A stretch of DNA of 36,917 bases from an archaeon (GTDB lineage Archaea; Thermoplasmatota; E2; UBA202; JdFR-43), in NCBI GenBank assembly GCA_024275755.1, contig JAJRYN010000097.1, forward strand, positions 1 to 36,917, in the 5' to 3' direction. The notes under the pieces were generated by a model. It was not told the origin of the DNA and made no database searches. It was given only the letters and a program-made list of their open reading frames with translations. Positions 2,927-35,924 of the stretch are shown here, piece by piece. Position 1 is the stretch's first letter, and every line of letters starts with the position of its first letter. A program made the translations under genes and the position numbers.

Positions 2927-3676
2927 ATGAAGGATATTAAGTCAGGAAGAAATTTATTGCTTCTATTCATGGCAGTAATTATAATTATAATTGTCATAAT
3001 AGCTGCTCCTTTTGTATATCAGAATTACAAAAAGGTTCTGAATCCAGTACATGATAAAGACGGAGATGGTGTGCCTGATAATGAAGATGCTTTTCCTAAT
3101 GATCCAAAAGAATGGAGAGATAGCGATGGGGATGGCATAGGAGACAATGCAGATAATGATGATGATAATGATGGCATTTTGGATAGCCAAGATTATCTGC
3201 CATATAATGATGGTGCAATAAAGGTAGAGATTTACAAGATAAGGGTAAAAGATTATTTGGTTCTGAATCAACAGATAGCAAAAATATACGCTAAAATATA
3301 TATCGATGACGTAATGTATGTTTTGCCAGAGGAAGGTGTAAAAGAAATTCCCATTGATGAAGATGTTACTGTAAACTGGAGTGTAAAACAAAATGTGGAT
3401 GATAGTATCGGCTATCACACAATAAAAATCGAGTTATATTACAAGGATATTCTCAACAGAGACAAACCCCTTGACATAAATGGAGAGGATGCTGATAAAG
3501 AAACAGGAAAGGCACTGACCATAAACTATTATATAGGAAACAAAGTAGGCCATCAGTATCCGGAGGGAGGGACATATAAGGTTTCTGACGGAAGCGAAGA
3601 TGGTAACAGCGGATTGTTTAATGAAAAGGATGCAAGAATTTATTTTAGAATTGTAACAGTTGATGCAAAAGCCTGA
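2927..3676 (+). CDS. Membrane-anchored protein with thrombospondin type-3-like Ca-binding Asp repeats and an uncharacterised C-terminal domain
   Basis: N-terminal signal anchor LLLLFMAVIIIIIVIIAAPFVY. DxDxDGxxDxxD-type repeats DKDGDGVPDNEDAFPNDP and DSDGDGIGDNADNDDDNDGILDSQD. The remaining ~170 aa has no motif I recognise. Confidence 0.65.
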   Translation: MKDIKSGRNLLLLFMAVIIIIIVIIAAPFVYQNYKKVLNPVHDKDGDGVPDNEDAFPNDPKEWRDSDGDGIGDNADNDDDNDGILDSQDYLPYNDGAIKVEIYKIRVKDYLVLNQQIAKIYAKIYIDDVMYVLPEEGVKEIPIDEDVTVNWSVKQNVDDSIGYHTIKIELYYKDILNRDKPLDINGEDADKETGKALTINYYIGNKVGHQYPEGGTYKVSDGSEDGNSGLFNEKDARIYFRIVTVDAKA

Positions 3677-5475: not shown

Positions 5476-7053
5476 ATGAAGAGAGTCGTCACGATTCTTA
5501 TCTTCCTTCTTTTTCCCTTTTTAATTCAGAATTGCATGGCTGAGGTTATTGTAGCTGGAATTGACGAAAATTATCCTCCTCATGAATTTGTTGAGGATGG
5601 AGAAGTAAAAGGATTTAATGTTGATGTGATGGAGGCGATTGCTCTGGAAATGGACAGAGAAATTATATTTAAACCAATGGTATGGCATAAAGCTATGGAA
5701 GCATTAAAAAACGGGAGTATTGACATACTTTGCATGGCAGCTTATGAAGAAAGAAAACAATATTTTGATTTTAGCGAACCCATTCTTGATTTAAAACTAG
5801 CGATTTTTGTGAAGGAGGAAGTAACAGGAATAACAAATATAGAAGATTTAGCAGGACATAGCGTGGCTGTTCAAAAAGGAGATATAGCAGAAGAAATTCT
5901 GCAGGAAAGAAATATCAATGCATATATAGTTGAAACGGGTAGTCAGGATGATGCTCTAAAACTTGTTGCAAACGGAGACGTAACTGCATTCCTCGGAAAT
6001 TATTATACAGGCGTATATCTCATTCACGAGCATGATTATAGAAATATAAAGGTAATCGGAGAAATGTTAACCATAGGGCAACGTGTTATTGCAGTGAAAA
6101 AGGGAAATGATGAACTGCTGGCAGATATAAATGCTGCTATAAATGCTATAAAGGCTTCTGGAGAATATGATAGGATATATGAAAAGTGGTATGGTATGCC
6201 TGTTTATGTTGAAAAGAGATTGCCTCAATGGATAGTGTATTCCATTCTTGGCTTGTTTGGCTTAATAGGAATTGTTTTCATCATGCTGAGCTTATGGAAC
6301 AGAACACTGGCAAGGAGGGTTGCTGAAAGAACTGCTGAATTGCAGGAGTATAAAGATAATCTCGAAGAAAAGGTAAGAGATAAAACAACAGAAGTGAAAG
6401 CATTGACATATGCTCTCGCCCACGATTTAAAAGCTCCGTTGAGGAGTATACAATCTTTTACTTTTATTCTCTCAAATGAATATGTCGATATTCTGGATGA
6501 GGAGGGGAAAGATGCTCTGAAAAGAATAGTTTCAGCGACAAAAAGAATGGAGATATTAATAAATGATTTGCTGGAATATGGAAGAATTGAAAGAAAAGAC
6601 GTGGAAAAGACGAATATTGACATGAATGAGCTGGTTGAAGAAATTATAAAAGAAATGGAGGAGTTAGTCAGGGAGAAAGACGCTGAAATAAAAATTTCGG
6701 AGTTACCATGCATAAAATCAGATTATGAAATTTTGAAAAGAATAATGACGAATTTAATTCATAATGCTGTTAAATTTGTGGAGAAAGAAAGAAGGCCGAT
6801 GGTCAGAATATACAGCAAAGGAAATGACGCGGTCAAAATATTTGTGGAAGATAATGGTATAGGAATTCCAGAGGAGTATCAGCAAAAAATTTTTGAGTTA
6901 TTTGAAAGGTTGCATGGAAGAGAAGAGTATGAGGGTACTGGCATTGGTTTAGCCATGGTTAAAAAAGGAGTGGAAAAATTGGGAGGAAAAGTTGGTGTAA
7001 AATCTGTGCCAAATAAAGGCAGTATTTTCTGGATTGAGTTGCCAAGAATATGA
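5476..7053 (+). CDS. Sensor histidine kinase with extracellular family-3 solute-binding (amino-acid-binding-like) domain
   Basis: Signal peptide, then an SBP_bac_3-like region (VAGIDENYPPHEF...KGFNVDVMEAIA...IDILCMAA...YDRIYEKWYG). One TM helix IVYSILGLFGLIGIVFIMLSL. HisKA H-box LAHDLKAPLRSI; HATPase boxes LIHNAVKF, EDNGIGIP and GTGIGLAMVKK. Confidence 0.85.
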   Translation: MKRVVTILIFLLFPFLIQNCMAEVIVAGIDENYPPHEFVEDGEVKGFNVDVMEAIALEMDREIIFKPMVWHKAMEALKNGSIDILCMAAYEERKQYFDFSEPILDLKLAIFVKEEVTGITNIEDLAGHSVAVQKGDIAEEILQERNINAYIVETGSQDDALKLVANGDVTAFLGNYYTGVYLIHEHDYRNIKVIGEMLTIGQRVIAVKKGNDELLADINAAINAIKASGEYDRIYEKWYGMPVYVEKRLPQWIVYSILGLFGLIGIVFIMLSLWNRTLARRVAERTAELQEYKDNLEEKVRDKTTEVKALTYALAHDLKAPLRSIQSFTFILSNEYVDILDEEGKDALKRIVSATKRMEILINDLLEYGRIERKDVEKTNIDMNELVEEIIKEMEELVREKDAEIKISELPCIKSDYEILKRIMTNLIHNAVKFVEKERRPMVRIYSKGNDAVKIFVEDNGIGIPEEYQQKIFELFERLHGREEYEGTGIGLAMVKKGVEKLGGKVGVKSVPNKGSIFWIELPRI

Positions 7054-7114: not shown

Positions 7115-7138
7115 GAACCTCTATTATATTTGTATATT

Positions 7139-10100
7139 ATGATGTTCCTTATTATTGATGATGAACCTGATGATAGAAAACTAGCCATAAGGTATTTAAA
7201 AAAGGAATTTCCTGATGCAGAATTTATTGAAATTTTTACCCAAAAACAATTTTATGATGCGCTTGAGGAAAAAAATTTTGATTTTGTTATTACTGATTAT
7301 CAGTTACACTGGGCAAATGGTATAAAAATTTTGAAGGAAGTAAAGAAAAGAAATCCTTTTCTGCCAGTTATAATGCTCACTGGCACAGGGACAGAAGAAA
7401 TTGCTGTGGAAGCATTAAAAGCTGGCTTAGATGATTATGTCATAAAGACTCCGGAACATTTCATGAAGTTGCCAGCAGCAGTAAAAGTTGCAATAGAAAA
7501 AGCGAAAATAAATCAACAGGAAAAAATGCTTGCCTCAATTGTGGAAAATGCAAAGGAGGCGGTTATAAGTGTGGACGAAAACGGAAACATAATATATGCT
7601 AACAAAGCAATCGAAGAAATTTTTGGATGGAAAAAGGAAGAAATTATAGGTAAGCCAGCATCGATTTTTGCCATCGATAAAAAAGAGCAGGAAGAACAAC
7701 TTGACGAAGCAATAAAGAAGGGAGGAGGAAAATTTGAGACGGTAAGGAAAGATAAGCATGGGAATGAAATCCCTGTTTTACTCACCATCGTTCCATTTAG
7801 GGATGAAAAAGGTAACCTACTTTTTTCGTCTGAAATAATGAGGGACATTCGAGAATTAAAGGAATATGAAAAAAGAGTAGAACATTTAAATGAGGTTTTA
7901 AGGGCCATAAGAAACGTAAATCAACTTATCACAAAGGAGAAAGGAGTTGATAGATTATTACAGGAAACCTGTAAAACTTTATTTAAAATAAGAGGATATG
8001 AGGCCACATGCATTTCACATAGAGATAACATATATATAGCAGGAAACAAAAAAGATTATGAGGAATTGCTGAAATATATTAAAGAAAAGGAAATAGAAGA
8101 TGAAATAGAAAGAGAAGGTAAAAAATTACTATATCAATTTAAAAATAAATATCTGCTTGCTCTACCCCTAATAAAAAATGGGGTTCAAGGAATTCTATAT
8201 GTTTTGCGTCCAAAAAAATTTGACGAAGAAGAAATCCGTCTCTTAAAAGAAGTTGGTCAAGATATTGCTTTTGCAATTCACTCGATTGAGTTGGAAAAAG
8301 AATTAAGGGAAGAAAGAGAGATGGTAAATGCAATTTTATCGGCTTCTCCAGTTGGAATTGGCTTTTCAATTAACCGCGCTATTGGATGGGCTAATGAAGC
8401 AATGTATAAAATGGTTGGTTATACACCGGAGGAAACTCTTGGAAAAAGTACTAGAATACTGTATGAAAGTGACGAAGAATATGAAAGAGTTGGTAGAGAA
8501 ATAGAAAAGGCATTTAAAAAAGGGAGGATAGCGGAAATAGAGACAAAATGGAAGAGAAAGGACGGAAGTGTTTTTGATTGTTATCTGCGCATATGCCCGA
8601 TAAACCCAGAAAAACCTGAGGAAGGAATCGTGGTTGTAGCAATGGACATAACAGAAAGAAAAAGACTTGAAAAGGAATTAAAAGAAAGCGAGGAAAGATT
8701 TAGACAATTTTTCGAGAATGCACCTGAATATTGTTACATGGTCTCAACCGATGGTAAAATACTCGATGTAAATAAAAGTGCGTTAAAAGCGCTTGGCTAT
8801 AAAAAAGAAGAACTTGTTGGAAAATCTTTATTTGTAATTTATTCACCTTCCTCACGGGAAAAAGCCAAAAAATTGTTCATGAAATGGAAGAAAACAGGAA
8901 GATTGAGAAATGAAGAATTAAAAATAATAACTAAAGATGGGAAAGAGAGAACAGTTTTACTGAGTGCAGATGCGGTGAGAGATGAAAAAGGAAATATTAT
9001 CCATTCTATCTCTATCCAGAGAGACATCACTGAATTGAAAGAGATGGAAGATGCCTTGAGGGAGAGTGAGGAAAAATACCGCACTCTTGCGGACAACGCT
9101 CCAGCGGGTGTTTTTATTGTTTACAATAGGGAAGTAATATATCTAAACAAAAAGGCGGAAGAAATGTTAAGAAGAGAGGAGGATGCTAAACATTTATATG
9201 TCATGTGGAAAAAGGATGGAAAACTGCCAATTGATGCTTTTTTTAACTTATGGAAAAAGGAAAAAAGAGAGAAAATAATGAGTGTCTTCGAAAAAGGCTT
9301 GAAAGGAGGAAAATTGAACACTGCCGAATTAAAAACTTCTGGTAATAGGCATCTTCTATTCTACATAACAGGTATAAAATACAAAGGTGAGGATGCACTG
9401 CTAGGCATTGTCCAAGATATTACAGAGTTAAGAAAAACAGAGGAAAAATTAAGAGAAAGCGAAGAGAAATTTAGGAGCCTAGTTGAAAATGCCGATGATG
9501 CAATTTATATTATTGCCTCTGAAGGATTCGAATATATAAATCCAGCATTTGAAAAACTTACTGGTTACAGTAGGAAAGAGATATTGAGTAAAGATTTCAA
9601 TTTCTGGAATTTGATACATCCAGAAGATATAGAACTTATAAGAAAAAGAAGGAAGGCAAGAATTAAGGGCGAAAAGATAGCTGGGAGATATGAATTTAGA
9701 ATAGTAACAAAAGACGGAAAAATAAAAAATGTAGAATCTTCAACAGTTCCTTTAGAAAAAGGAAGAACCCTTGGGATCATGAGAGACATTACCGAAAGGA
9801 AAAAAGCTGAAGAAATGATAAGAAAATTATCTGATTTGCACTATGTTATAGGCATGAGTATAAACAGGAGTAGCACAATCAAAGAATTGTGTGAAAATAT
9901 ACTGAAGCATATAAGAGAAATAATTGAAATTGATCATACAAATATATTCATTTATGAGGAAGAAAATAACATTTTAAAGCCAATTGCCCACTATGGCTAT
10001 CCTGAAGATTTTGCAAAGAGAGTGATGAAAAGTTATATGGTGGATGAAAAGCAACCATGGGAAGCAGTTAAATCGTTTTTAGAGAAAAAAGAGAGATATG

Positions 10101-10537
10101 TAAAGGATTTGAAGAAGCACAAGCCATTGTCCTTTAACTGGGACTTATACAGAAAATATGATGCTACTGAACTCTATACACTTCCTCTCATTACAAAGAA
10201 TAGGGTATATGGCATATTACAGGTTTTGAATACTTCCAGTAATCCGTTGACGGAGGATAAAAGAAAATTACTCAAAAGCATAGCAGAAGAAATTGCAGCA
10301 GGAATTGCAAAAATAAAGGCAGAGGAAGAAACAAGAAGGGCATTGGAGCAAGAAAGAGAGTTTAAGTTGAGAGCAGCCCACTATTTCTTCAATCCAATAG
10401 CCATTGCAAAAGGATATCTCGAATTGATACTGGAGGAAGAAGGCGAAAATGAAAAAATATTAAAAGCTATTGAGGCTATAAATAGAGTAGAAAAGGTAGT
10501 TAAAAATGTTACACAAAGGGGTGAGATAGTTGAATAA
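7139..10537 (+). CDS. Multi-sensor signalling protein: REC, ~5 PAS and 2 GAF-like segments, C-terminal DHp-like His module, no HATPase_c
   Basis: REC residues: IIDDEPDD, VITDYQL, MLTGTG, YVIKTP. There are five recurring PAS-end linkers (DITERKRLEKELKESEERFRQF, DITELKEMEDALRESEEKYRTL, DITELRKTEEKLRESEEKFRSL, DITERKKAEEMIRKL, DIRELKEYEKRVEHL). The ORF ends AAHYFFNPIAIAKGYLELIL..., a HisKA-like H-box, with no N/G1/G2 ATPase boxes. The ORF is open from TTG 7130; ATG 7139 fits the TATA spacing. Confidence 0.85.
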   Translation: MMFLIIDDEPDDRKLAIRYLKKEFPDAEFIEIFTQKQFYDALEEKNFDFVITDYQLHWANGIKILKEVKKRNPFLPVIMLTGTGTEEIAVEALKAGLDDYVIKTPEHFMKLPAAVKVAIEKAKINQQEKMLASIVENAKEAVISVDENGNIIYANKAIEEIFGWKKEEIIGKPASIFAIDKKEQEEQLDEAIKKGGGKFETVRKDKHGNEIPVLLTIVPFRDEKGNLLFSSEIMRDIRELKEYEKRVEHLNEVLRAIRNVNQLITKEKGVDRLLQETCKTLFKIRGYEATCISHRDNIYIAGNKKDYEELLKYIKEKEIEDEIEREGKKLLYQFKNKYLLALPLIKNGVQGILYVLRPKKFDEEEIRLLKEVGQDIAFAIHSIELEKELREEREMVNAILSASPVGIGFSINRAIGWANEAMYKMVGYTPEETLGKSTRILYESDEEYERVGREIEKAFKKGRIAEIETKWKRKDGSVFDCYLRICPINPEKPEEGIVVVAMDITERKRLEKELKESEERFRQFFENAPEYCYMVSTDGKILDVNKSALKALGYKKEELVGKSLFVIYSPSSREKAKKLFMKWKKTGRLRNEELKIITKDGKERTVLLSADAVRDEKGNIIHSISIQRDITELKEMEDALRESEEKYRTLADNAPAGVFIVYNREVIYLNKKAEEMLRREEDAKHLYVMWKKDGKLPIDAFFNLWKKEKREKIMSVFEKGLKGGKLNTAELKTSGNRHLLFYITGIKYKGEDALLGIVQDITELRKTEEKLRESEEKFRSLVENADDAIYIIASEGFEYINPAFEKLTGYSRKEILSKDFNFWNLIHPEDIELIRKRRKARIKGEKIAGRYEFRIVTKDGKIKNVESSTVPLEKGRTLGIMRDITERKKAEEMIRKLSDLHYVIGMSINRSSTIKELCENILKHIREIIEIDHTNIFIYEEENNILKPIAHYGYPEDFAKRVMKSYMVDEKQPWEAVKSFLEKKERYVKDLKKHKPLSFNWDLYRKYDATELYTLPLITKNRVYGILQVLNTSSNPLTEDKRKLLKSIAEEIAAGIAKIKAEEETRRALEQEREFKLRAAHYFFNPIAIAKGYLELILEEEGENEKILKAIEAINRVEKVVKNVTQRGEIVE

Positions 10538-10967
10538 AAAAATATTGATTATAGATGATGAGCCCGACATGCACGAATTGCTAAAGGTACATCTAAACAA
10601 AATCGAAGGCGTTGACATATTAAGTGCATATTCTGGAGAAGAAGGAGTGAAGATATATAAAGAGCTGCATGAAAAAGGAGAAACTCCTGCCCTGGTTATT
10701 ATGGATTTGAACTTATCAGGAAAGGAAGATATTGAACTTATAGATTTGCATAAGGATGGGATGGATGAGAAACTGGATGGTGTGAGGGCTACAGAACAAA
10801 TTCTGAAAATAGACCCTAAAGCAAATATATGGGGTTATACAGCATGGTTTGATACAGACTGGGCAGAAAAGTTAAAGGAAAAAGGAGCAAGAAAAATTTT
10901 TGGTAGAGTCACTCCATTTAAAGAATTTGCAAAAATGGTGAAAAAGTTTCTGGAGGAGGGAGAATAA
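10530..10967 (+). CDS. Stand-alone response-regulator receiver (atypical: insertion after the phospho-Asp, Arg at the conserved Lys position)
   Basis: ILIIDDEPD, LVIMDLNLSG, WGYTAW. TTG start overlaps the upstream stop by 8 nt. A ~18-aa insert KEDIELIDLHKDGMDEK precedes LDGVRATEQIL. Confidence 0.75.
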   Translation: MNKKILIIDDEPDMHELLKVHLNKIEGVDILSAYSGEEGVKIYKELHEKGETPALVIMDLNLSGKEDIELIDLHKDGMDEKLDGVRATEQILKIDPKANIWGYTAWFDTDWAEKLKEKGARKIFGRVTPFKEFAKMVKKFLEEGE

Positions 10968-14030: not shown

Positions 14031-14684
14031 CTAAAATAGTTTGCTCTGTTTCATTTCATTTTCGATATTTTTTATTGTTTTCCAGCTCTTTCTTGTATGA
14101 GGTGGCAAATCATTAAATTTTTTTATCCACTCTTTAATGAATGTGATGGTTCTTTCATCACTTGGATATCCACTTCCAAGAGGTAATCCAAGCTTTGTCT
14201 CCAGTTCTTCAGCAATCTTTTTGATTCTTTCGTCTCTTTCAACTTTGGCAATTATGGATGCTGCCGAAACAACGGCATATTTGTCATCTGCACCATGCTC
14301 ACAAATTATCTGGCAGTCATGTTTAATTAATTCCTGTATCGTTTTTTTGAATTCTTCCTCATTATTGCTTGCCGCATCTATGTAATAAATGGATGCTTCT
14401 CTTTTATTTGCGAGTTTGGCAAAAATATATGCTTCAAGCTGATTCATCGTCATTGTTTTGCGCAAATTGTCTATATCGCTTGCATCCACAACAACATATT
14501 CATGATAAAAATTCTTCTTAATATATTCTGCAAGTTTTTCCCTCCTTTGCTTTATCAATTTTTTTGAATCCCTCACCTTTGCTTCAAGCAACTTCCATTC
14601 CTCTTTTTTATCAATCCATACAGCTGCCACAACCATTGGTCCAATTACAGGACCGCGCCCTGCCTCATCTATCCCACATATCAT
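14031..14684 (-). CDS. rnhB: Ribonuclease HII
   Basis: MICGIDEAGRGPVIGPMVVAAV (catalytic DEAGRG), YIDAASN, SAASIIAKVERD, LGSGYPSD. Confidence 0.92.
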   Translation of the reverse strand: MICGIDEAGRGPVIGPMVVAAVWIDKKEEWKLLEAKVRDSKKLIKQRREKLAEYIKKNFYHEYVVVDASDIDNLRKTMTMNQLEAYIFAKLANKREASIYYIDAASNNEEEFKKTIQELIKHDCQIICEHGADDKYAVVSAASIIAKVERDERIKKIAEELETKLGLPLGSGYPSDERTITFIKEWIKKFNDLPPHTRKSWKTIKNIENEMKQSKLF

Positions 14685-15814
14685 TTTATCACAATCTCTC
14701 CATATTTTCCTCCGCCACCCGGCAGAATTTCTATTCTTCCTTCTCTGAATGCTTCTATTGCATCTGCGATGGCAGATGGTGCAACTTTTCTTATTTTTTT
14801 AATATCAACATCAAGTAATATTTCTATCTCATTGCCTATCTGAGTTAATTCCTTCCATCTTCTGATAACAATGCTTGCTTTGCTATCTGTTCCCAAAGCT
14901 TCGCCAATTATCTCTGCCAGTGGAATTAAATGAAGATATTTTGGTCTACTCTCAGGATGCACAGCATGTTGATAGGAAGCAAGTTCATCCACTCTATCTT
15001 TAACGCCCTTTTTTATTATCCCGTTGCAGTGGCACCTCCATCTCATTTTTTCTGCCTCTTCTTTTTTATACTGACGATAGCATGAAGTGCATGCTGTTCT
15101 GTTGTACTTTCCTTTCTCTGGAGGAAAACCCACGTTTAACGCAATGCCATTATTTAAGATTGCCTTCCTTATTTCATCCCATGTTATCTCATTTAGCTTT
15201 ATTCTATTGAACTCTCTTCCAAGGCGATGGGGCGAATAAGAGTGGGCATCAGAATTTGTTAAAAAAGGTATGTCATGCAGCTCTTTTATTCTATCTGCAT
15301 AATCGCTGTCTGCACTCAAGCCAAGTTCAATGAAATCTGGCTTCTTGCCATAATAATCAAGCACGGAATCAAAATAGGCGTACAAGGAGGTCCATGGGGT
15401 AAAGGCATGAGCTGGTCCAATTAAAGCATTCGCCTCTTTTGCCATCTGTAAAATTTCCGCTCCATCCAGCATTATTTTGGGGCGACCATCCTCATTTATA
15501 TTGGACGAATATTTTTTAACCCTCTCCTTAAAATCGTCGGCAGCATAAAAATCAGGAAATAAAAGCAAATGATGTACCCTGTTTTTGTCCTCAACTTCCG
15601 CACTTAAAACAAAATGTATCCCATCCGCTTCTATGACATCACCTGTGGCATATTTTTTAATTTCTCTCTGCCATGCTGGGTGTAAACAATCACCAGTTCC
15701 CACAACATGCAACCCTTTTTTCTTGGCACCATCTGCTATTCTTTTTAAATCGATTTTATCTGATGTTCCCCCTGAAAAAGGAGAATGAATGTGAAAGTCA
15801 GCGTTAACGAGCAT
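14681..15814 (-). CDS. endoQ: Endonuclease Q-like PHP-domain nuclease with Zn-ribbon
   Basis: ADFHIHSPFS, VGTGDCLHPAW, VEDKNRVHHLLLFP, GPAHAFTPWTSLY, LGLSADSDYAD, NSDAHSYSPHRLGREFNR, C..C...WRCHCNG, GIIKKGVKDRVDEL and PGGGGKYGEI are colinear with Pyrococcus EndoQ as I remember it. The stop overlaps the rnhB ATG by 4 nt. Confidence 0.8.
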   Translation of the reverse strand: MLVNADFHIHSPFSGGTSDKIDLKRIADGAKKKGLHVVGTGDCLHPAWQREIKKYATGDVIEADGIHFVLSAEVEDKNRVHHLLLFPDFYAADDFKERVKKYSSNINEDGRPKIMLDGAEILQMAKEANALIGPAHAFTPWTSLYAYFDSVLDYYGKKPDFIELGLSADSDYADRIKELHDIPFLTNSDAHSYSPHRLGREFNRIKLNEITWDEIRKAILNNGIALNVGFPPEKGKYNRTACTSCYRQYKKEEAEKMRWRCHCNGIIKKGVKDRVDELASYQHAVHPESRPKYLHLIPLAEIIGEALGTDSKASIVIRRWKELTQIGNEIEILLDVDIKKIRKVAPSAIADAIEAFREGRIEILPGGGGKYGEIVIK

Positions 15815-15853
15815 AATGAAAAAATTTTATATTATAAAAAATGTTGGGGGATT

Positions 15854-16918
15854 ATGAAAGCCAGGAAATTCGGTTTATTGGTGGTGATGCTCCTGCCTCT
15901 TGTGGGAGCAACAAATTTTGAGATAAGTATAAACGATAAGCAAGGAGATGTATCGAATCCGGATGTGGATATAGTGAAGGCATGGACGACTGTGGAAGGA
16001 AGCTATTTAGTATTTCACGTAAAGGTTGCAGGAAAGATAAATGAAGCATATAGCTACACCTTTACAGCTTATACAGGCGGTGTGAATAAGGCAGGAGTAA
16101 TCTTTCAGAGTGGAACAGCATATTATAGTGGAGATTCTTCGGGAGGAATAGCAGAATACAATGTAGATGGAGATACACTCAGCATAAAGGTTCCATATGG
16201 CGTATTTTCCTCATGGGACGATTTCAGTTTCTCAGTAATAGCGAATGATAATGCAGGCACAATCGATTATGCAATTGCTAGCGATATGGGAGGAGATAGC
16301 GGAGACGAAGGAGATACTGGAGGCCATGGCGATACAGATCCTGCTAAAGAAACACCAACTGATACAAGCATAAGCGTAAAGATAACCAATGTTGAATACA
16401 AATTCGAGAAGGTGGATAATGGACAAAAATGGTATGTGAAAGTGCTCATTGAAGGTACAACAAGTGGTGTGGATCATGTTTCACTCTGCTATGTAATCTA
16501 TTACAAGGATGGCACATACGATGTTACGGAATGGATGAAAGGGCCATTTGAAATACAGCCAGGAAGTTTCTTTGGCAGTGAAATAATCAAATTTATATTT
16601 AATTCTACAGAAGGAAACTGGAATAAATGGAAATTTGAATTAGAGGCAAAATATCCTGTAACTGAACCAGATTATCAGTGGGTTGAAAAAGAAAAGGAAG
16701 TAGATAGAGTAGTCATCTACGCCAGAGCCTTCAAAGATGCAGCTGAAACAAAATGGAATCAGGCAAAATATGAAACAAAACCAACATTTACGTCAAATGG
16801 AGCAGAATATACAATAAGTGGAGAAGAAACAGAGGGAAAGAAAGGTATATCTGGTTTTGAAATAGCTTTTGTCTTTGCTGCTATAGTGGCTGCTCTGTTT
16901 ATAATAAGGAGAAAATAA
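15854..16918 (+). CDS. Secreted surface protein with acidic linker and C-terminal SGF+TM+RRK anchor (PGF-CTERM-like)
   Basis: Signal peptide MKARKFGLLVVMLLPLVGA; linker DMGGDSGDEGDTGGHGDTDPAKETPTDTS; C-terminus GISGFEIAFVFAAIVAALFIIRRK. The ORF-track start (15785) would overlap endoQ, so ATG 15854 is preferred. Confidence 0.6.
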   Translation: MKARKFGLLVVMLLPLVGATNFEISINDKQGDVSNPDVDIVKAWTTVEGSYLVFHVKVAGKINEAYSYTFTAYTGGVNKAGVIFQSGTAYYSGDSSGGIAEYNVDGDTLSIKVPYGVFSSWDDFSFSVIANDNAGTIDYAIASDMGGDSGDEGDTGGHGDTDPAKETPTDTSISVKITNVEYKFEKVDNGQKWYVKVLIEGTTSGVDHVSLCYVIYYKDGTYDVTEWMKGPFEIQPGSFFGSEIIKFIFNSTEGNWNKWKFELEAKYPVTEPDYQWVEKEKEVDRVVIYARAFKDAAETKWNQAKYETKPTFTSNGAEYTISGEETEGKKGISGFEIAFVFAAIVAALFIIRRK

Positions 16919-29605: not shown

Positions 29606-30835
29606 TTAGGGCTTTAATTTTATGGTTTCTCTCACAAGCTTCTCTATTCTCCTCAAACTCTTTTCAATAGCTTGGAGTTGTTTTCTCTGTTCTTCTGATA
29701 ACTCGCCATACTTTTCTTCTCCAAGTAGATGGAGATACCCTTGGGCTATGGAAAGAGGATTGAGGAAAAGATGTGCAACTCTTTCTGAAAAGATCTTTCT
29801 CAACCCCTTTTCTTCTTCTTTGGAATGGAATGCAAGAATGCTGATTTTCCCACCTTCTCTCTCCATTCCTGTAAATCTTCCATAAAGTATATGATGTACA
29901 CCGTAGCCATCTACAAATTCAAATTCCACTTCCTCGCTTTCGCTCCCCATAAATATTCTTTCATTTGCCTCCTTTATTTTTTCTCTGTCTTTTGCAGCAA
30001 CAAATTCTGTGAATAATTTTCCTTTCATTTCTTCCATCTCATATCCAAAATTTGCTTTTATGTGCTCATTTGCACTTTTAACTCTCCCCTCTTCATCAAG
30101 TATGACAACATTTATAGGTATATTATGCAGGATTTTTCTTAATGGCAATAATTCCTCTTCCATAAGGGTAGACGGTAAAAATGGTATGCTGTCTATTTTC
30201 AATAACAGTTCTCTGCATCTTTTAATGCCTATTTCTGCAATGTTTATTTCTCTTTTAGCTTCGATAACTTTCTCTGCAAACTCTTTTCTGCTTATTTCCT
30301 TAAGCAACCTTTTCCCAGATAGCTCTACCAATTCCTTCCTCAATGTTATTATTTTTGTCTCCAGATCATTTATTCTTTTAATCAATGCTTCCTTCAATAG
30401 TAACACTTCCTCAACGTATTTTCTTACTTCCGGATATTTCGCTTCTATCGCTCTATATAACTCATCCTTGCTGGCCCCATGCAAAAGAGATTCATGCACA
30501 TCCGGCAATTTGGTTTTTGCCTCCAGTTCAGCCACAAGTTTCAATCCTTCTGAATACCATAATGGAGCGAAAATTAATCCTCTTCTGGTTTTTTCAAATG
30601 CGTCTGAAGGAAAATAAAATGTTTTACCCATCTCATCCTCAATTTCGTATCCTATTTCCTCCCCCAAACTATTTCTCACTATCTTCTTCACAACCCCTAC
30701 TCTTTCTCCTGTATCCTCAAAATAGACAGGTAAGCCAATAATTCTCCTCTCTTTCCGTCTAGATGCGTCTATCCAGAATCTTATTTTCCTTTTGATAGAT
30801 ATGAAGAATTTCCGGATTGTCCAATAGATGCTCAT
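29606..30835 (-). CDS. Cytoplasmic sensor-like protein: PRC-barrel-like N-terminus, coiled coil, PAS, C-terminal DHp-like His module (no HATPase_c)
   Basis: The PRC-like call for IIGLPVYFEDTGERVGVVKKIV...TFYFPSDAFEKTRRGLIFAP is tentative. PAS: INVVILDEEGRVKSANEHIKANFGYEMEEMKG. Ends VAHLFLNPLSIAQGYLHLL...LQAIEKSLRRIEKLV. ATGA overlap with the upstream peptidase gene. Confidence 0.7.
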   Translation of the reverse strand: MSIYWTIRKFFISIKRKIRFWIDASRRKERRIIGLPVYFEDTGERVGVVKKIVRNSLGEEIGYEIEDEMGKTFYFPSDAFEKTRRGLIFAPLWYSEGLKLVAELEAKTKLPDVHESLLHGASKDELYRAIEAKYPEVRKYVEEVLLLKEALIKRINDLETKIITLRKELVELSGKRLLKEISRKEFAEKVIEAKREINIAEIGIKRCRELLLKIDSIPFLPSTLMEEELLPLRKILHNIPINVVILDEEGRVKSANEHIKANFGYEMEEMKGKLFTEFVAAKDREKIKEANERIFMGSESEEVEFEFVDGYGVHHILYGRFTGMEREGGKISILAFHSKEEEKGLRKIFSERVAHLFLNPLSIAQGYLHLLGEEKYGELSEEQRKQLQAIEKSLRRIEKLVRETIKLKP

Positions 30836-32427
30836 ATGTCACACACCTCCAGCAAAGCAGCGGGATCGATTTTTTCCCTCACACGATGCAGTACTGCCAC
30901 AAACGCCATCATTGACATAAAGTTTACTGTGAAAAGAATAATAATCAAAATAAAAGATATGGAAAGATATTGCATGAAGAGGATAAATGCCCCATCCCCC
31001 AAAAAGAGCATCATTCGGGCTGCAAAAACAAGAGATAAGATGGATGAGGAAATTAAGGAGGCGAAAGCAAACTCGTTTTTAAATCTACAGCCTAAGTGAT
31101 ATAAGAGAATAGAAATAACCATGGAAGAAACAAATGCCGTTAGAAAGAGATTTCCTATTCCATCAAAAAGAAGTGGAATGAAAATGATGGTGATCAATGG
31201 GATAAAAATCGCCTTTTTGTTAATCGTGTCTACCCATAGTAGCATATTTCTAATCTTTTCTCCTGCTTTATTAATTTTGTTTTTTATCGCGGCAAAACCA
31301 CGATGTAAGAAAAGGAATCTTGGATAATGTCTCATTGTAACAGCAGGCATATACGCCGCTGTCAAATGGAACTTTTCTATAATTATTGAAGAAAATATGA
31401 GTAGCAGGAGTGTAATGAATGACATTATAAGCGATGAGAGTAACGAGGAAAATAGGACACACATCCTCGGATTTATATTATAGAAGTATTCAATAACTTT
31501 TTCTGGAAGCAGCATCCAGTAAGGAGACGAATAAACAAAAACCTTTCCTCTGATTTCTTTAGCATATCCTACCCCAATCTCTTTTCTTTCCCCACTTTTA
31601 ATAGCAAATATATTGCTATCCAGTGTTATATTCTTATTTCCTTCTGCAAAAACTATTCCCCTTACAGGAAGCAAGGAGGGATTGTACACTGGGATGCCAG
31701 CCACAACCCTGTTTTTATGTTCTTCAAGGGTAATGCTATCGTATGCAAAAAAAGATGTTAGCAGCAGAAAAGGAATAAAAAAGGAGAAAATGTATCCCAT
31801 CATCTTTTTGGCTGTTATTTTTTCAGGGCCAAAAATCAATTCATGCAGCTTTTCTTTCAAGCTTTTGCCATTTGGAAGCCATATTATAAGATACGCCATC
31901 AAAATGGTTAGGAAAAATATAAAGGGAAAAAATATTAGATAATGTATTGCTGGCTGCGGTTTGCCCCAGTTAATCGGAGTGGCCATTTTGTCGATAGCTT
32001 TTTGCAAATAAATCCAGAAATAGCCGACGAAAGGTATTTTCAATGGCTGGCTACCAATCATTATTGCTTTTCCATAAAGATTTCTTTCAGATACCATAGG
32101 CTCAGGTATATGTGGACCTGCCTGGTCTGTATAGTTGTTCGCATCTCCTTTTGTAATAAGTTTTCCATCTTTAATGTCGATGACTCTATGAATGATGAGA
32201 TTGCCATAAACACTTTTATAGACAACTATATCGCCTTCTTTAACATCATCGATTTTACATGGCATCCAGATTACAATGTCCCCCTCATGTAAACTCGGTT
32301 TCATTGAGGAAGAGGAAATAATATTCATTGGATAGGGCACTCCATTAAATATGGTGATAAACCTTGTTATTATAATGAGGAACACTGCAATGAAAGCAAT
32401 GTTTCCTATCACTTTTTTCATGTTCAT
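30832..32427 (-). CDS. SipW/Sec11-type (S26B) signal peptidase I fused to a ~380-aa polytopic membrane domain
   Basis: N-terminal TM, then ISSSSMKPSLHEGDIV (Ser box), GNLIIHRVI (His box) and ITKGDANNYTD (GDxN box). About 8 further hydrophobic helices and a ~90-aa soluble insert follow. ATGA overlaps at both ends. Confidence 0.8.
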   Translation of the reverse strand: MNMKKVIGNIAFIAVFLIIITRFITIFNGVPYPMNIISSSSMKPSLHEGDIVIWMPCKIDDVKEGDIVVYKSVYGNLIIHRVIDIKDGKLITKGDANNYTDQAGPHIPEPMVSERNLYGKAIMIGSQPLKIPFVGYFWIYLQKAIDKMATPINWGKPQPAIHYLIFFPFIFFLTILMAYLIIWLPNGKSLKEKLHELIFGPEKITAKKMMGYIFSFFIPFLLLTSFFAYDSITLEEHKNRVVAGIPVYNPSLLPVRGIVFAEGNKNITLDSNIFAIKSGERKEIGVGYAKEIRGKVFVYSSPYWMLLPEKVIEYFYNINPRMCVLFSSLLSSLIMSFITLLLLIFSSIIIEKFHLTAAYMPAVTMRHYPRFLFLHRGFAAIKNKINKAGEKIRNMLLWVDTINKKAIFIPLITIIFIPLLFDGIGNLFLTAFVSSMVISILLYHLGCRFKNEFAFASLISSSILSLVFAARMMLFLGDGAFILFMQYLSISFILIIILFTVNFMSMMAFVAVLHRVREKIDPAALLEVCDI

Positions 32428-33791
32428 TTTGTTATCACCTCCACCATAATATAGTCTGTATCAATTATGGAATAAATGGTCCACACCCATATTCTCCTTG
32501 TATAAGAGTTCTGCTCCACAAGCAAAATCAGTTTTCCATTACGAATATAATTTGATGAATTCAGTACATATGCTTCCAATGTATCCTCACTAGCTACACT
32601 GTTCATGACCAATGCATCATATTTGCTTGCGGTATAATTCCACAAAAATATGGTTGCGCCTGGCGTAAGTAAATGTCTTCCTCTTCCATTCCATAATATA
32701 TGCAATAGTGCAATTTCATCAGAGCTTTCATTCAAAGTGAGGACAAAGCGATGTGCCGCATAGAAACCTCTTGCTGCTATATCGGTTTGGAAGGTGCCAT
32801 CATCATAGAAAATATTCTGATATTGCAAGGAGGTAAATTCAACAGAGGGAGTGTCATTGGTGGAAGGTGGAAGTGCATCTACCTCCCATCTATATGCATA
32901 TCTATCTACTCCTGCATTTGTAGAGAAGTCGTATATACTAAGTATATCAGATATGCTTTCATTGGTGACGTATATGCCAGCTTCATCTGTTGCTATTCTG
33001 TAAAAGTTGCCTCCTGTCGAATAGTCATTTATACCCTTTAAATCGAAAAGTATTATTTTCCAGTTTCCGGACAGCATGCCACTTACAGCAAAAACATCCC
33101 ATGTATTGTTTGATGATGCAACAAATGTGCCATAAAAACTGCCAGAAGGGGAATATACCAATGCTGCAATATAATCTCCATCATATATTGCAAAACTGAA
33201 GTTGCCATCGGAAGGAATTTCGTATGTTTCATATGCAGAAAAACCTGCCCCTCTTCCAAGAATCATTGCATCATTACTCCCATAATAATTGCCGGGAGGA
33301 GAATATCCTGGATAAAGCGATGACTGACTTTCATTCATAAAAATTCTATCTGTTACAACTATTTCTAGCCCATAATAATTCCCATTGACATATCCCCAGG
33401 AATCTTCAATTATTTCTATTGTGTAATTGCCATGAGCGCTTGAAAAGTTAAAATAATTCCATGTATCAGAGGATGTTGCATAAGAATCGATAATAACACC
33501 TGTTGAATTATATACTCTTATTCTGAGTCCATCTCCATCATATATTCCTATGCTAACCTCGCTATTCAGCGCTGTGAAGTGGTAAGAATGAACTTCATTT
33601 ATCTTTCCCTCTCTAGCAATTGTAGCAGAAAAATCGCCTCTGAAACGCACAGCATATGTAATTGGAATGGAAAAAATATAATTGGTTCCCAACACTGCAT
33701 TTTCATTTGCAAAAAGACGGGATGAAAAAAAGCTACTACAAAATAATAAAATAAGAGAAAGGATGGCAATGGTTGCCAACTTTTTTTTCAT
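32424..33791 (-). CDS. Secreted protein with two duplicated beta-sandwich (PPC-like) modules and an uncharacterised C-terminal domain
   Basis: Signal peptide MKKKLATIAILSLILLFCSSFFS. Internal repeat aa ~67-146 vs ~187-267 (IGIYDGDGLRIRVYNSTG...ATSSDTWNYF...GNYTIEI vs FAIYDGDYIAALVYSPSG...ASSNNTWDVF...GNWKIIL). More than 10 N-x-S/T sequons. Confidence 0.65.
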   Translation of the reverse strand: MKKKLATIAILSLILLFCSSFFSSRLFANENAVLGTNYIFSIPITYAVRFRGDFSATIAREGKINEVHSYHFTALNSEVSIGIYDGDGLRIRVYNSTGVIIDSYATSSDTWNYFNFSSAHGNYTIEIIEDSWGYVNGNYYGLEIVVTDRIFMNESQSSLYPGYSPPGNYYGSNDAMILGRGAGFSAYETYEIPSDGNFSFAIYDGDYIAALVYSPSGSFYGTFVASSNNTWDVFAVSGMLSGNWKIILFDLKGINDYSTGGNFYRIATDEAGIYVTNESISDILSIYDFSTNAGVDRYAYRWEVDALPPSTNDTPSVEFTSLQYQNIFYDDGTFQTDIAARGFYAAHRFVLTLNESSDEIALLHILWNGRGRHLLTPGATIFLWNYTASKYDALVMNSVASEDTLEAYVLNSSNYIRNGKLILLVEQNSYTRRIWVWTIYSIIDTDYIMVEVITK

Positions 33792-33871
33792 GGTAGCGTC
33801 AGCAGCGCCGCTATAGCCGCCAGTATAATTGCAATGGCAAGCAGCAGCAGTATCTTCTTTCTAAGCCCCAT
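33788..33871 (-). CDS. 27-codon ORF encoding a single hydrophobic helix (MGLRKKILLLLAIAIILAAIAALLTLP)
   Basis: It exactly fills the only gap in the operon. Its ATG shares a base with the upstream TAA (TAATG) and its TGA overlaps the downstream ATG (ATGA). No homology evidence. Confidence 0.4.
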   Translation of the reverse strand: MGLRKKILLLLAIAIILAAIAALLTLP

Positions 33872-34524
33872 TACGTTTCTGCCTTAAACTGGAATTCTAT
33901 CGAGCCAGTATATGTTGTGCCTTTTGTTGCCCCACTTGTATCTATGGAAATCTGCACCCAGACAAAATCTGTTGAGCCATTTATTGCAGACGGTGTGCCA
34001 GCAGCATATCTGATATTATCATCTGTATCCCAAGGTGTGGAAGTTGTTTCCATTGTTGAATTATCCATATCTCCTGTATCAAGAATCCAGTAGCCCTGCG
34101 ATGCCGAGCCATCCCAGATTAAGAGCCTGGCGGTTGCGGCTTCGCCTGTTGCGTCAACAGTTGGATCGGAGTGGAGCCATATTCTTATGAAATTTGCTCC
34201 TGTTCCGCTCACCGATACACCTGTAATATTTACAGGGAAACCTTCTTCATTCACTATTGCAAATGCTGCAGTATATGTCTTATTCATTCCCTTAGGTATG
34301 TCTCCAAATTTGATGGTCATTGTCGCCGTATTATTATCCTCTATCCTTAACAGTCTTCGTCCATCTGTAGAATTATCCATTGCAACAAATCTTATGAACC
34401 CGTTGGATGGATGAACAACGCTGAATTCATAGCCTATTGTTATTCTCGCATACTGTGTTGCAACGGCTGCAGACAGCACTGCCACTGTTATTCCTATTAG
34501 CAATACCTTTTTTCTTACATCCAC
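33871..34524 (-). CDS. Secreted TasA/camelysin-like (tentative) beta-rich protein
   Basis: GGAGG lies 8 nt before GTG 34524 (ORF open to GTG 34542). Signal peptide VRKKVLLIGITVAVLSAAVATQYA. Six N-x-S/T sequons. The C-terminal strand GTTYTGSIEFQFKAET resembles the TasA end YQGNSIKLQFSFEATQ. It sits in an operon with a SipW-type peptidase. Confidence 0.55.
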   Translation of the reverse strand: MDVRKKVLLIGITVAVLSAAVATQYARITIGYEFSVVHPSNGFIRFVAMDNSTDGRRLLRIEDNNTATMTIKFGDIPKGMNKTYTAAFAIVNEEGFPVNITGVSVSGTGANFIRIWLHSDPTVDATGEAATARLLIWDGSASQGYWILDTGDMDNSTMETTSTPWDTDDNIRYAAGTPSAINGSTDFVWVQISIDTSGATKGTTYTGSIEFQFKAET

Positions 34525-34630
34525 ATTAATCCCCTCCAGCACCCATTCAAGGCGGAATATATAATATTTTTGAAATTTTTCGATGTTAGTAAAAACTTTT
34601 TTAATTTGGCTTAATTATTTTTTAAAGAAA

Positions 34631-34658: not shown

Positions 34659-35924
34659 ATGAACCGTTTATTAAATAGGCTAAAGGAAATATTTTACCTT
34701 CCCCCCGAAAAATGGAAGGAAGTGGATAAACTTATCTATGGACTGGATGACTATTATCTTTACGACTCGAAGAAAATTCAGGAAAGCAGATTTAAAGCAA
34801 TAAAGGAAGCTTTTTTGCACCACTACACAAATAATCTGTTTTATCACAAATATTGCAAGGAAAACAATGTTACTCCAGACGATATCAAAAGCGTTGACGA
34901 CTTCAACAAAATTCCTCTGATTCCGGACAAGTTCTTTAAAGATTATCCGGACGAAGATCCAAGAAAATTATATGAATGGCTCTATAAAATTTCCTCAGTT
35001 GATATAGGAACTTATGATTTCAATGGAAAGAAACTCCAGGACTTCCTAGTATGGGCTGAGAAAAAGCTAAATGGCATTGTTACTCATTCTTCTGGCACAA
35101 CAGGAAAATTCAGTTTTATGTTCAGAGATGAGGTAACAAGAAAGAGGATGTTTTATTCTGCAGATAAAATTTTGCTGTTTACAATATACCCCCCAGCTGA
35201 TGATGCCCATATAATATATCCTGGGCCCATAAAGACTCATTTAACTATGGGGAGATGGGTTGCAGAAGGAACAAGAATATTCGATGAAAATCATCGCCAT
35301 TTTCTGACAGAAAGGCCGCTCAGCATTGATATAATAAGGATAATGTCTGGACAGGTTAATGGAATGGGGGACAAATTGAAATTGATGGTGATAAAGAAGG
35401 CCATGCACAAAGGACAGCTCAAGCTATTGAAACTTTTAGAAGAAATGGATAAAAAAGGCAAGCAAATTTACATGATTACATTTCCCTTCCAGTTATATGA
35501 TTTGATGAAAATAATGGAGGAACAAGGTGTTTATCTAAACCTTGGAGAAAGCAATTCAGTTATAATAACAGGAGGTGGATGGAAAATACACGAAAACATA
35601 AAGATATCATCAGCAGAAATGGCGAAGAAGATAGAGGAATTTTTCGGTATAGAAACTAACAACTACAGAGATGTTTATGGAATGTCTGAGATGAATGGCT
35701 TGGCGTTAGATTGTGAAGCAAGATACAAGCATTTCCCTCCATGGATTCATCCAATAGTGCTTGACGAAAATTATGAACCTGTTTCATATGGTGAAGAAGG
35801 AAGATTTGCTTTTCTGGATCCGGCTGCCAATAGTTATCCAGGTTTCATAATCACTGGGGACAAGGTGAAACTTATGGAAGCATGTCCAGAATGTGGAAGA
35901 GAAGGCATCGTGATAAAGGGATAA
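34659..35924 (+). CDS. LuxE-like acyl-protein synthetase / adenylate-forming enzyme, terminated by TAA before its conserved C-terminal tail
   Basis: Colinear with Vibrio LuxE as recalled: AFLHHYTNNLFYHKYC, IPLIPDKFFK, THSSGTTGKFSF, VIITGGGWK, HFPPWIHPIVLDENYEPV, DPAANSYPGFIITGD. Confidence 0.8.
   Translation: MNRLLNRLKEIFYLPPEKWKEVDKLIYGLDDYYLYDSKKIQESRFKAIKEAFLHHYTNNLFYHKYCKENNVTPDDIKSVDDFNKIPLIPDKFFKDYPDEDPRKLYEWLYKISSVDIGTYDFNGKKLQDFLVWAEKKLNGIVTHSSGTTGKFSFMFRDEVTRKRMFYSADKILLFTIYPPADDAHIIYPGPIKTHLTMGRWVAEGTRIFDENHRHFLTERPLSIDIIRIMSGQVNGMGDKLKLMVIKKAMHKGQLKLLKLLEEMDKKGKQIYMITFPFQLYDLMKIMEEQGVYLNLGESNSVIITGGGWKIHENIKISSAEMAKKIEEFFGIETNNYRDVYGMSEMNGLALDCEARYKHFPPWIHPIVLDENYEPVSYGEEGRFAFLDPAANSYPGFIITGDKVKLMEACPECGREGIVIKG

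Follow-up and report, generated by a model that had tools for sequence, protein, structure and literature searches.

Signal peptidases dedicated to donor-strand pili are known, and SipW and TafD are the described examples. Within the tapA-sipW-tasA operon of Bacillus subtilis, SipW is a Sec11-type Ser/His peptidase of ~190 amino acids (aa), which has neither an immunoglobulin (Ig)-like domain nor a polytopic module, and it is encoded together with a fibre subunit and a minor subunit, both of which it frees of their signal peptides (PMC9245690). According to another report, TafD (HAH_0243) is the signal peptidase I of the Haloarcula hispanica Tat-fimbriae, with four helices and a C-terminal Ig-like ectodomain; deletion of tafD in this species blocks TafA processing and fimbria formation, and TafD is described there as a dedicated enzyme that coexists with general Sec11 paralogues (PMC11821415). 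The same report and a further paper place two-domain, four-helix TafD homologues in Thermococcus, Pyrococcus, and Archaeoglobus, beside genes for DUF1102 pilins and for the DUF5305 protein TafG (PMC11821415; PMC12337348). Here, we analysed a stretch of 36,917 nucleotides (nt) from a Thermoplasmatota archaeon (assembly GCA_024275755.1, contig JAJRYN010000097.1, positions 1 to 36,917; hereafter the window), which carries a gene for a 531-aa signal peptidase I with a large membrane-spanning extension. The peptidase and its Ig-like part appear to be a further member of this group of dedicated enzymes, in Thermoplasmatota, and two features are new: a conserved membrane module that was seen nowhere else in 1.84 billion representative proteins, and a near-constant, apparently translationally coupled pairing of the peptidase with a CdvA-like cytoplasmic protein. 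The explanation to which we lean, with some caution, is that a dedicated pilin-processing peptidase of the TafD plan carries a module that docks this CdvA-like partner.

The long peptidase and the TafD plan

The peptidase gene is one uninterrupted open reading frame (ORF) with an ATG start (30832..32427, minus strand), and a search of 5.8 billion proteins returned 84 full-length homologues of 463-593 aa, at 24-92% identity (mostly at least 27%) and 73-100% query coverage. A preliminary description, made from the letters of the window, had proposed a signal peptidase fused to a large membrane domain and had allowed that a missed frameshift or stop might have joined a separate gene to the peptidase; the single ORF found here and in the 84 homologues rules out a frameshift or two separate genes, and the fusion is genuine and conserved. 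SipW and Sec11 enzymes are usually ~170-210 aa long and have one or two helices. The present protein is ~2.5 times that length; that such enzymes are far shorter had been remarked before. The long form was found in ~57 GTDB species genomes in a scan of one genome per species, for which two patterns biased towards the family were used and, of 135 loci, the best 80 retained; all carriers are Thermoplasmatota and all are metagenome-assembled genomes (MAGs), with no cultured genome among the 80 kept loci. Protein identity of the window is 92-93% to Thermoplasmatales archaeon JdFR-43 and Thermoplasmatota archaeon S5B3_HD70.

At residues 5-147, the protein was matched to the NCBIfam equivalog for archaeal signal peptidase I (TIGR02228; 81.2 bits, cut-off 51.85) and to the Pfam family Peptidase_S26 (PF10502; 25.5 bits, cut-off 22.9). 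The boxes that mark this class are all present, with Ser in the S-M box, His and not Lys in box D, and Asp in the G-D-x-N box. When 42 homologues were aligned, S41 was found in all 37 sequences that cover its column and H80, D95, and D101 in all 42; because these catalytic residues are invariant, the Ser-His-Asp set of Sec11-type enzymes is intact. The best Foldseek matches in the PDB are human SEC11C (7p2q, E 6e-5) and SEC11A (7p2p, E 8.4e-5), and the SipW model NF046067 was matched at E 5.7e-10 but with 39 bits against a cut-off of 190 bits. The protein can be assigned from its sequence to signal peptidase I of the S26B (Sec11/SipW) type, as the preliminary description had recognised for residues ~1-150, and it is predicted to cleave signal peptides. 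Its likeness to eukaryotic SEC11 (7P2P, 7P2Q) lies in the structural match of residues ~1-150 and in the same Ser-His-Asp chemistry, whereas the extra helices and the lumenal beta-sandwich of the eukaryotic complex are contributed by separate subunits, SPC12, SPC25, and SPC22/23.

Hydropathy analysis gave eight hydrophobic segments (residues 1-32, 158-187, 209-229, 321-358, 401-420, 423-447, 452-477, and 477-514). An AlphaFold2 model built with 42 homologues (mean predicted local distance difference test score, pLDDT, 79) has helices at residues 3-28, 160-186, 206-227, 320-400, 404-420, 424-444, 450-473, and 480-520, a beta-rich catalytic domain after the first of these, and a beta-sandwich at residues 229-301. 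The extension was earlier thought to hold about eight helices; the six that were quoted all fall inside predicted helices, but the extension has seven and the N-terminal anchor makes eight. The ~90-aa soluble insert that was noticed at the same time is the Ig-like ectodomain of ~75-90 aa formed by these strands. Since Lys and Arg cluster in the predicted cytoplasmic parts (four in loop 187-205, nine in helix 346-402, two in loop 445-451, and three in the tail) and the short external loops have none, the model is consistent with a topology in which both termini are cytoplasmic and the catalytic domain and beta-sandwich are outside, this orientation being predicted.

With this layout, residues 1-360 conform to the TafD plan in the order of anchor, catalytic domain, two helices, Ig-like ectodomain, and fourth helix, and the gene likewise lies beside donor-strand pilin genes, as in the taf clusters (PMC11821415; PMC12337348). 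A TafD orthologue of 383 aa was retrieved from Haloferax mediterranei pHM500, where the cluster also has a LamG-domain gene and a DUF5305 gene, and hhalign aligned our family profile with it colinearly over residues 5-360 against 4-372 (98.8%, E 9e-17). Because the score of this full-length alignment stems mostly from the catalytic domain, a comparison of the C-terminal regions only was run, in which the profile of residues 151-531 matched five TafD C-terminal regions over 98 columns (82%, E 1e-5); these columns comprise the Ig-like domain together with a motif next to the membrane, in which Y-S-S-P-Y-W-x-L-P is aligned with R-Y-L-L-V-L-P. When the extension profile was compared with a single TafD sequence, the value was only 15% (E 0.0017). 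The Ig-like reading of the insert is backed by the result of searching all 1.84 billion representatives exhaustively with the extension profile, which also turned up ~45 small proteins of 131-190 aa that match the third helix and the beta-sandwich only; two of these were scanned, and one passes the Pfam cut-offs for the Ig-like ASH and MSP families.

Three of the five TafD features that we compared are thus found at this locus, namely the architecture, the C-terminal homology, and the donor-strand pilin neighbours within the window, and two are not, since there is no TafG partner and the protein has eight helices instead of four. TafD orthologues have ~345-385 aa, and the alignment stops at about residue 360, TafD itself ending a few residues past helix 4; the long peptidase adds ~170 residues. 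Furthermore, the substrates of the Taf system carry twin-arginine (Tat) signal peptides, whereas those here are apparently of the Sec type, and a CdvA-like partner was not seen in the published passages on taf loci that were consulted. The extension had been treated as a single unit; it needs to be divided, because residues ~150-360 correspond to the described TafD architecture and only residues ~360-531 are new. We also considered that the extension might be a fused TafG, and this was ruled out, as hhalign gave 0.06% for DUF5305 and there was no DUF5305 match by Pfam.

The C-terminal module and the CdvA-like partner

The ~170 residues beyond the end of TafD begin with a helix in the cytoplasm, continue with four helices in the membrane, and end in a conserved tail. 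Residues ~360-531 have no Pfam or NCBIfam match, and in a Foldseek search with the whole model residues 403-531 found no PDB fold, the rest of the model giving SEC11 and weak Ig-type matches. Among the 1.84 billion representatives, 128 proteins matched the extension profile at E 0.001; in all 31 matches that are longer than 500 aa and reach past the Ig insert, the matched part starts at about residue 120-210, after an N-terminus of peptidase length, and the shorter matches resemble fragments from contig ends. At the level of sequence, the module is without relatives outside the long-peptidase family. It also seems to accompany the peptidase independently of the Ig insert, because a 348-aa variant from the representative-protein search (P0159) has the module and the tail and no Ig domain: in this variant, a single helix and a cytoplasmic linker lead from the peptidase to the four-helix module, the tail ends in DEDCDI, and the Ig insert and helices 3-4 are missing.

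Within the new module, the conserved face points to the cytoplasm. Mean column conservation is highest in the catalytic domain (0.65) and second highest in the tail at residues 513-531 (0.63), and it is 0.51 in the cytoplasmic loop 445-451; on the outside, the bundle has two loops, one of 3 residues (0.40) and one of 6 residues (0.25). Across loci L001-L062, the tail ends in C-D-[LI] in 42 of the 48 that hold a CdvA-like gene and in T/S/G-D-[LIV] in the six that truly lack one.

The gene that follows the peptidase gene encodes a 409-aa protein, the start of which overlaps the peptidase stop by 4 nt (ATGA, 30832..30835). The stop of the preceding gene, for a 455-aa secreted protein, overlaps the peptidase start in the same manner (ATGA, 32424..32427), and a Shine-Dalgarno-like motif, GGAGGTG, lies 8-10 nt upstream of the start at both junctions, which together suggest that the three genes are translationally coupled. 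The peptidase gene is the third of a four-gene minus-strand operon with the order 223-aa protein, 455-aa protein, peptidase, and 409-aa partner. To see how constant this arrangement is, all ORFs of 59 loci, with 6-8 kb of DNA around each long-peptidase gene, were surveyed with profile hidden Markov models, the counts being given over the loci with enough room. In 46 of 53 loci, the very next gene downstream, read in the same direction, is CdvA-like; the gaps to the peptidase gene are -94 to +68 nt, nearly all between -13 and +40. In a reciprocal check, two partner homologues taken from a separate search both have directly upstream a gene of long-peptidase size (537 or 586 aa). A pilin-like or AF_1625_C gene was found upstream in 21 of 40 loci. 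Thus, the general rule is a long peptidase together with a CdvA-like protein, and the pilin operon is a feature of the window's clade.

The partner family profile matches the Sulfolobus CdvA structure 9s9g over the PRC barrel and coiled coil (E 1.7e-7), in an alignment to CdvA residues 21-152 that includes the motif LIF-P-W-x-EA. A Pfam scan of 33 partner orthologues detected the PRC barrel in 24, the CdvA coiled coil in five, and PAS and HisKA in only 10-11; in the 409-aa protein, the HisKA segment forms the C-terminal end and aligns to the phospho-acceptor model. The likeness to Sulfolobus CdvA (9S9G; PMC12818579) is therefore that of a PRC barrel followed by a coiled coil, whereas the partner differs in its C-terminus, made up of PAS-HisKA or of a short coiled coil, and in its pairing with a membrane peptidase; no ESCRT-III or Vps4 gene was seen by Pfam among the genes of the loci inspected or among the window ORFs scanned. 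From these shared fold elements and the lack of an ESCRT context, we call the partner CdvA-like, not CdvA. A partner profile search in the 5.8-billion-protein set has little bearing on its distribution, as PAS/HisKA words saturated the candidates and 27 proteins were scored. At the related locus L094, a lone receiver gene (6194..6586) overlaps the 3' end of the partner gene.

A structural study of CdvA from 2026 reports no membrane binding by its filaments in vitro, a missing membrane partner, and the need for an unknown tether (PMC12818579); for this reason, the pairing described here merits a test. We found no paper on a fusion of a peptidase to such a module, or on a peptidase linked to a PRC-barrel protein. 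If the two proteins touch, an extracellular maturation enzyme would be linked across the membrane to a cytoskeleton-like scaffold, and the module would be a candidate for the membrane tethering of CdvA-type proteins. We regard direct contact between the C-terminal module and the partner as about as probable as its opposite, judging from gene order, translational coupling, and conservation.

Secreted neighbours and possible functions

The 223-aa protein encoded by the first gene of the operon has no Pfam match at E <0.1 and no PDB sequence match. At least 124 homologues were retrieved, all of them lacking a Pfam domain; those with an organism in the source name are all from MAGs of Thermoplasmatota or Euryarchaeota. 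The leading Foldseek matches of its model are the Pyrobaculum bundling pilus protein AbpA (7ueg, E 3.4e-5), the thread subunit of Sulfolobus (7pnb, E 2.6e-4), and the cannulae protein CanA (9hdi, E 9e-3), with chaperone-usher subunits lower in the list and modest TM-scores of 0.35-0.41 for the pilin matches. AbpA is an established archaeal homologue of TasA (PMC9245690). Because this TasA homologue is the best fold match, the term TasA-like is fair for the predicted fold of the 223-aa protein, not for its sequence family, and no match to the TasA model (TasA/Peptidase_M73) was obtained for 18 of its relatives. The claim that TasA-like secreted proteins are co-encoded with the peptidase thus holds insofar as two secreted proteins share the operon and one of them has a predicted pilin fold, and it does not extend to sequence; within the tapA-sipW-tasA operon the corresponding subunit is TasA itself, whereas the 223-aa pilin resembles it by predicted fold, via AbpA. 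The 223-aa protein is probably a major donor-strand pilin, which would form filaments.

The 455-aa protein belongs to a family of 221-823 aa with highly variable middles, some of them with DUF2341-type inserts, and because variable middles are typical of tip or adhesin subunits, it is a probable minor or tip subunit. Neither secreted protein has a Pfam or NCBIfam match above noise, and the 455-aa protein, like the other, has no PDB sequence match. The two families have one similarity only, a segment of 19 columns (E 4e-4) with the consensus A-x-Q-Y-A/S...Y-x-F/Y-S-I/V, which follows the signal-peptide core and reads AVATQYARITIGYEFSVV in the 223-aa protein (33871..34542) and LFANENAVLGTNYIFSIP in the 455-aa protein (32424..33791); its A-T-Q-Y-A is almost invariant in the 223-aa family. 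This common segment is probably the cleavage site and donor strand. No twin-arginine was seen in either N-terminus when read by eye, without a predictor, and the substrates appear to carry Sec-type, not Tat, signal peptides.

In the window's clade, the pilin-fold neighbour and the common post-signal segment argue for a dedicated pilin-processing role of the peptidase. By analogy with TafD and SipW, the 223-aa and 455-aa proteins most likely lose their signal peptides to this peptidase, an active enzyme of the Sec11/SipW type; cleavage near the A-x-Q-Y motif would free an N-terminal strand, which would be donated to the next pilin subunit outside the cell. On the cytoplasmic side, the C-terminal module would dock the CdvA-like product of the translationally coupled next gene and so tie the peptidase and the pilin-processing site to a cytoplasmic scaffold or sensor. 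We speculate that this docking may position the maturation site on the scaffold or, in the clade with PAS and HisKA domains, may report to a relay through them. We hold the peptidase and TafD parts of this explanation with more confidence than the combined statement. A more specific version, that the four-helix module and its C-D-[LI] tail are the membrane tether for a CdvA-like polymer, which fixes the site of pilin maturation or lets the peptidase mark a site for the scaffold, seems unlikely to us; if true, a CdvA-type protein would for the first time have an identified membrane partner. Through the peptidase-pilin part, the taf/ABP family of archaeal biofilm filaments would gain a third lineage, one with Sec-type substrates, and we found no report of this donor-strand pilus type in uncultured Thermoplasmatota lineages.

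Several observations weigh against the combined explanation. The homology of the Ig region to TafD is moderate, and TafG, the constant companion of TafD, has no counterpart here, as Pfam found no DUF5305 in the five ORFs of the cluster or in the 20 larger remaining ORFs of the window that were scanned. The contact between the tail and the PRC barrel is drawn from gene order and conservation, and the Cys at position -3 of the tail tracks the presence of the partner (42/48 against 0/6) but follows lineage and is a hint only. Six very divergent loci are without the partner gene, pilin-like genes adjoin in just over half of the loci with upstream DNA, and all members of the family are known from MAG sequences only. 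In a distant clade (~30% identity), no pilin genes lie nearby and housekeeping genes surround the peptidase gene; there the protein could be a general signal peptidase.

This last point leads to the best surviving alternative, that the protein is the housekeeping signal peptidase I of these Thermoplasmatota, the extra helices and Ig domain acting in cis like the subunits of the eukaryotic complex and shaping the membrane, with the adjacency of pilin genes secondary. We consider this possible, though rather improbable. It agrees with the TIGR02228 equivalog cut-off being passed, with the SEC11 subunits of the human complex as the best PDB fold, with the 19 of 40 loci that have no pilin-like gene nearby, and with the position of the window and many loci among genes for ribosomal proteins, eIF2-alpha, and ProRS. 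In addition, no second, short Sec11 was found in any carrier MAG among the best 80 of 135 loci, and the sole short Thermoplasmatales form (L064) is from a MAG without the long form; however, the scan was family-biased, so that the absence of a short paralogue is weak evidence, and although no second S26 gene lies elsewhere in the window, the window alone says nothing on the rest of the genome. One MAG carries two long-type copies (L059 and L063), each with pilin-like genes upstream, which speaks for dedicated enzymes, as do the ATGA coupling to a secreted-protein gene, the common A-x-Q-Y motif, and the homology of the architecture to TafD, itself a dedicated enzyme beside general Sec11 paralogues (PMC11821415). 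Neither Pfam nor Foldseek found any similarity of the extension to SPC22/23, SPC25, or SPC12, and a housekeeping role leaves the CdvA-like partner unexplained.

The preliminary description had suggested that the extension could serve the co-encoded secreted proteins as a platform for export, assembly, or anchoring, which would amount to a pilus base or an usher-like device, and had asked whether it always co-occurs with TasA-like neighbours. The operon with pilin-like proteins fits such a platform, and the Ig-like ectodomain could hold a subunit, as its weak Foldseek matches are of the Ig type and include the Caf1M chaperone (E 0.06); the streptococcal signal-peptidase homologue SipA (4n31), which is needed for pilus polymerisation, was also matched (E 0.017). 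Nevertheless, we find this very unlikely. The new bundle exposes only the two short, poorly conserved external loops and its conserved parts are cytoplasmic; the module is retained in the 19 loci without nearby pilin genes; its most constant neighbour is the CdvA-like gene (46/53) and not a pilin-like one (21/40); and neither Pfam, NCBIfam, Foldseek, nor the representative profile search found the extension to resemble a transporter or an usher. Moreover, donor-strand pili of the TasA, AbpA, and cannulae kinds are described as forming without a membrane machine (PMC9245690; title of 10.1101/2024.12.30.630787). Least probable of all is a signalling pair, in which the membrane protein senses the state of secretion or the envelope and passes it through the tail to a PRC-PAS-HisKA protein and a phosphorelay: the HisKA of the partner aligning to the phospho-acceptor model, the receiver gene overlapping the partner's end in L094, and the many two-component genes of the window agree with it, but PAS and HisKA are confined to the minority of partners noted above while the conserved core is the PRC barrel and coiled coil, the distant clade has its PAS-like segment on a separate giant coiled-coil protein, the operon has no kinase domain, and the partner has no ATPase domain.

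Feature positions and neighbouring genes

The positions of the parts of the peptidase and of the other operon genes are collected in Table 1.

Table 1. Parts of the long peptidase and the genes that share its operon, in window coordinates
Feature	Coordinates	Strand	Evidence
Predicted signal-anchor helix, residues 1-28	32344..32427	-	Hydropathy 1-32; AlphaFold2 helix 3-28; three K/R ahead of the helix
Predicted extracytoplasmic S26B catalytic domain, residues 29-150, S41/H80/D95/D101	31978..32343	-	TIGR02228, PF10502, invariant residues, Foldseek
Predicted helices 2 and 3 with basic cytoplasmic loop between them, residues 158-229	31741..31956	-	Hydropathy, AlphaFold2, charge; colinear with TafD orthologue
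Predicted Ig-like beta-sandwich ectodomain and conserved juxtamembrane motif YSSPYW-LLP, residues 230-320	31468..31740	-	AlphaFold2; TafD C-terminal profile match
Predicted helix 4 running into a long basic cytoplasmic helix (9 K/R), residues 321-402	31222..31467	-	AlphaFold2 helix 320-400; charge
Lineage-specific four-helix membrane bundle (predicted), cytoplasmic loop G-C-R-F-K, residues 403-512	30892..31221	-	AlphaFold2, pLDDT mostly 83-93
Conserved, predicted cytoplasmic C-terminal tail ...REKIDPAALLEVCDI-COOH, residues 513-531	30835..30891	-	Conservation 0.63
CdvA-like 409-aa partner with PRC barrel, CdvA-like coiled coil, PAS, and HisKA, lacking an ATPase domain	29606..30835	-	Pfam; CdvA 9s9g match
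455-aa secreted protein with signal peptide, a beta-rich middle that varies, and a C-terminal domain of ~190 aa that is conserved	32424..33791	-	AF_1625_C (Pfam) in orthologues
223-aa secreted protein, probably the major donor-strand pilin; A-T-Q-Y-A follows its signal peptide	33871..34542	-	AlphaFold2 pLDDT 87; Foldseek

Divergent from the pilin gene, a LuxE/PaaK-like adenylate-forming enzyme (PF04443, E 1e-30) is encoded at 34659..35924 (plus strand); at the related locus L006, genes for an AMP-binding enzyme and a radical SAM protein are found instead, downstream of the partner gene. In the distant clade, the partner gene is followed by one for a protein of 976-2055 aa with a PAS-like start followed by low-complexity sequence or coiled coil, with no Pfam match recorded (L004, 11004..16853; L005, 10885..17052; L034, 9004..12075; L036, 8942..11872). 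An archaellin-type gene follows this giant gene on the opposite strand in L004 and L005, and a similar 208-aa ORF is at the same place in L036.

The two-component genes of the window include two sensor kinases, one of the 7TM type (913..2583, minus strand) and one with a solute-binding domain (5476..7053, plus strand), and a 1135-aa protein that combines a receiver with four PAS domains and a GAF domain but has no recognisable output domain (7130..10537, plus strand), the end of whose gene is overlapped by a stand-alone receiver gene (10530..10967, plus strand). Two 377-aa ORFs (14681..15814, minus strand, and 15785..16918, plus strand) overlap by 30 nt at their 5' ends and have no Pfam match at E 0.001. 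At 2927..3676 (plus strand), the window also encodes a 249-aa protein whose sole Pfam match is the thrombospondin type 3 (calcium-binding) repeat.

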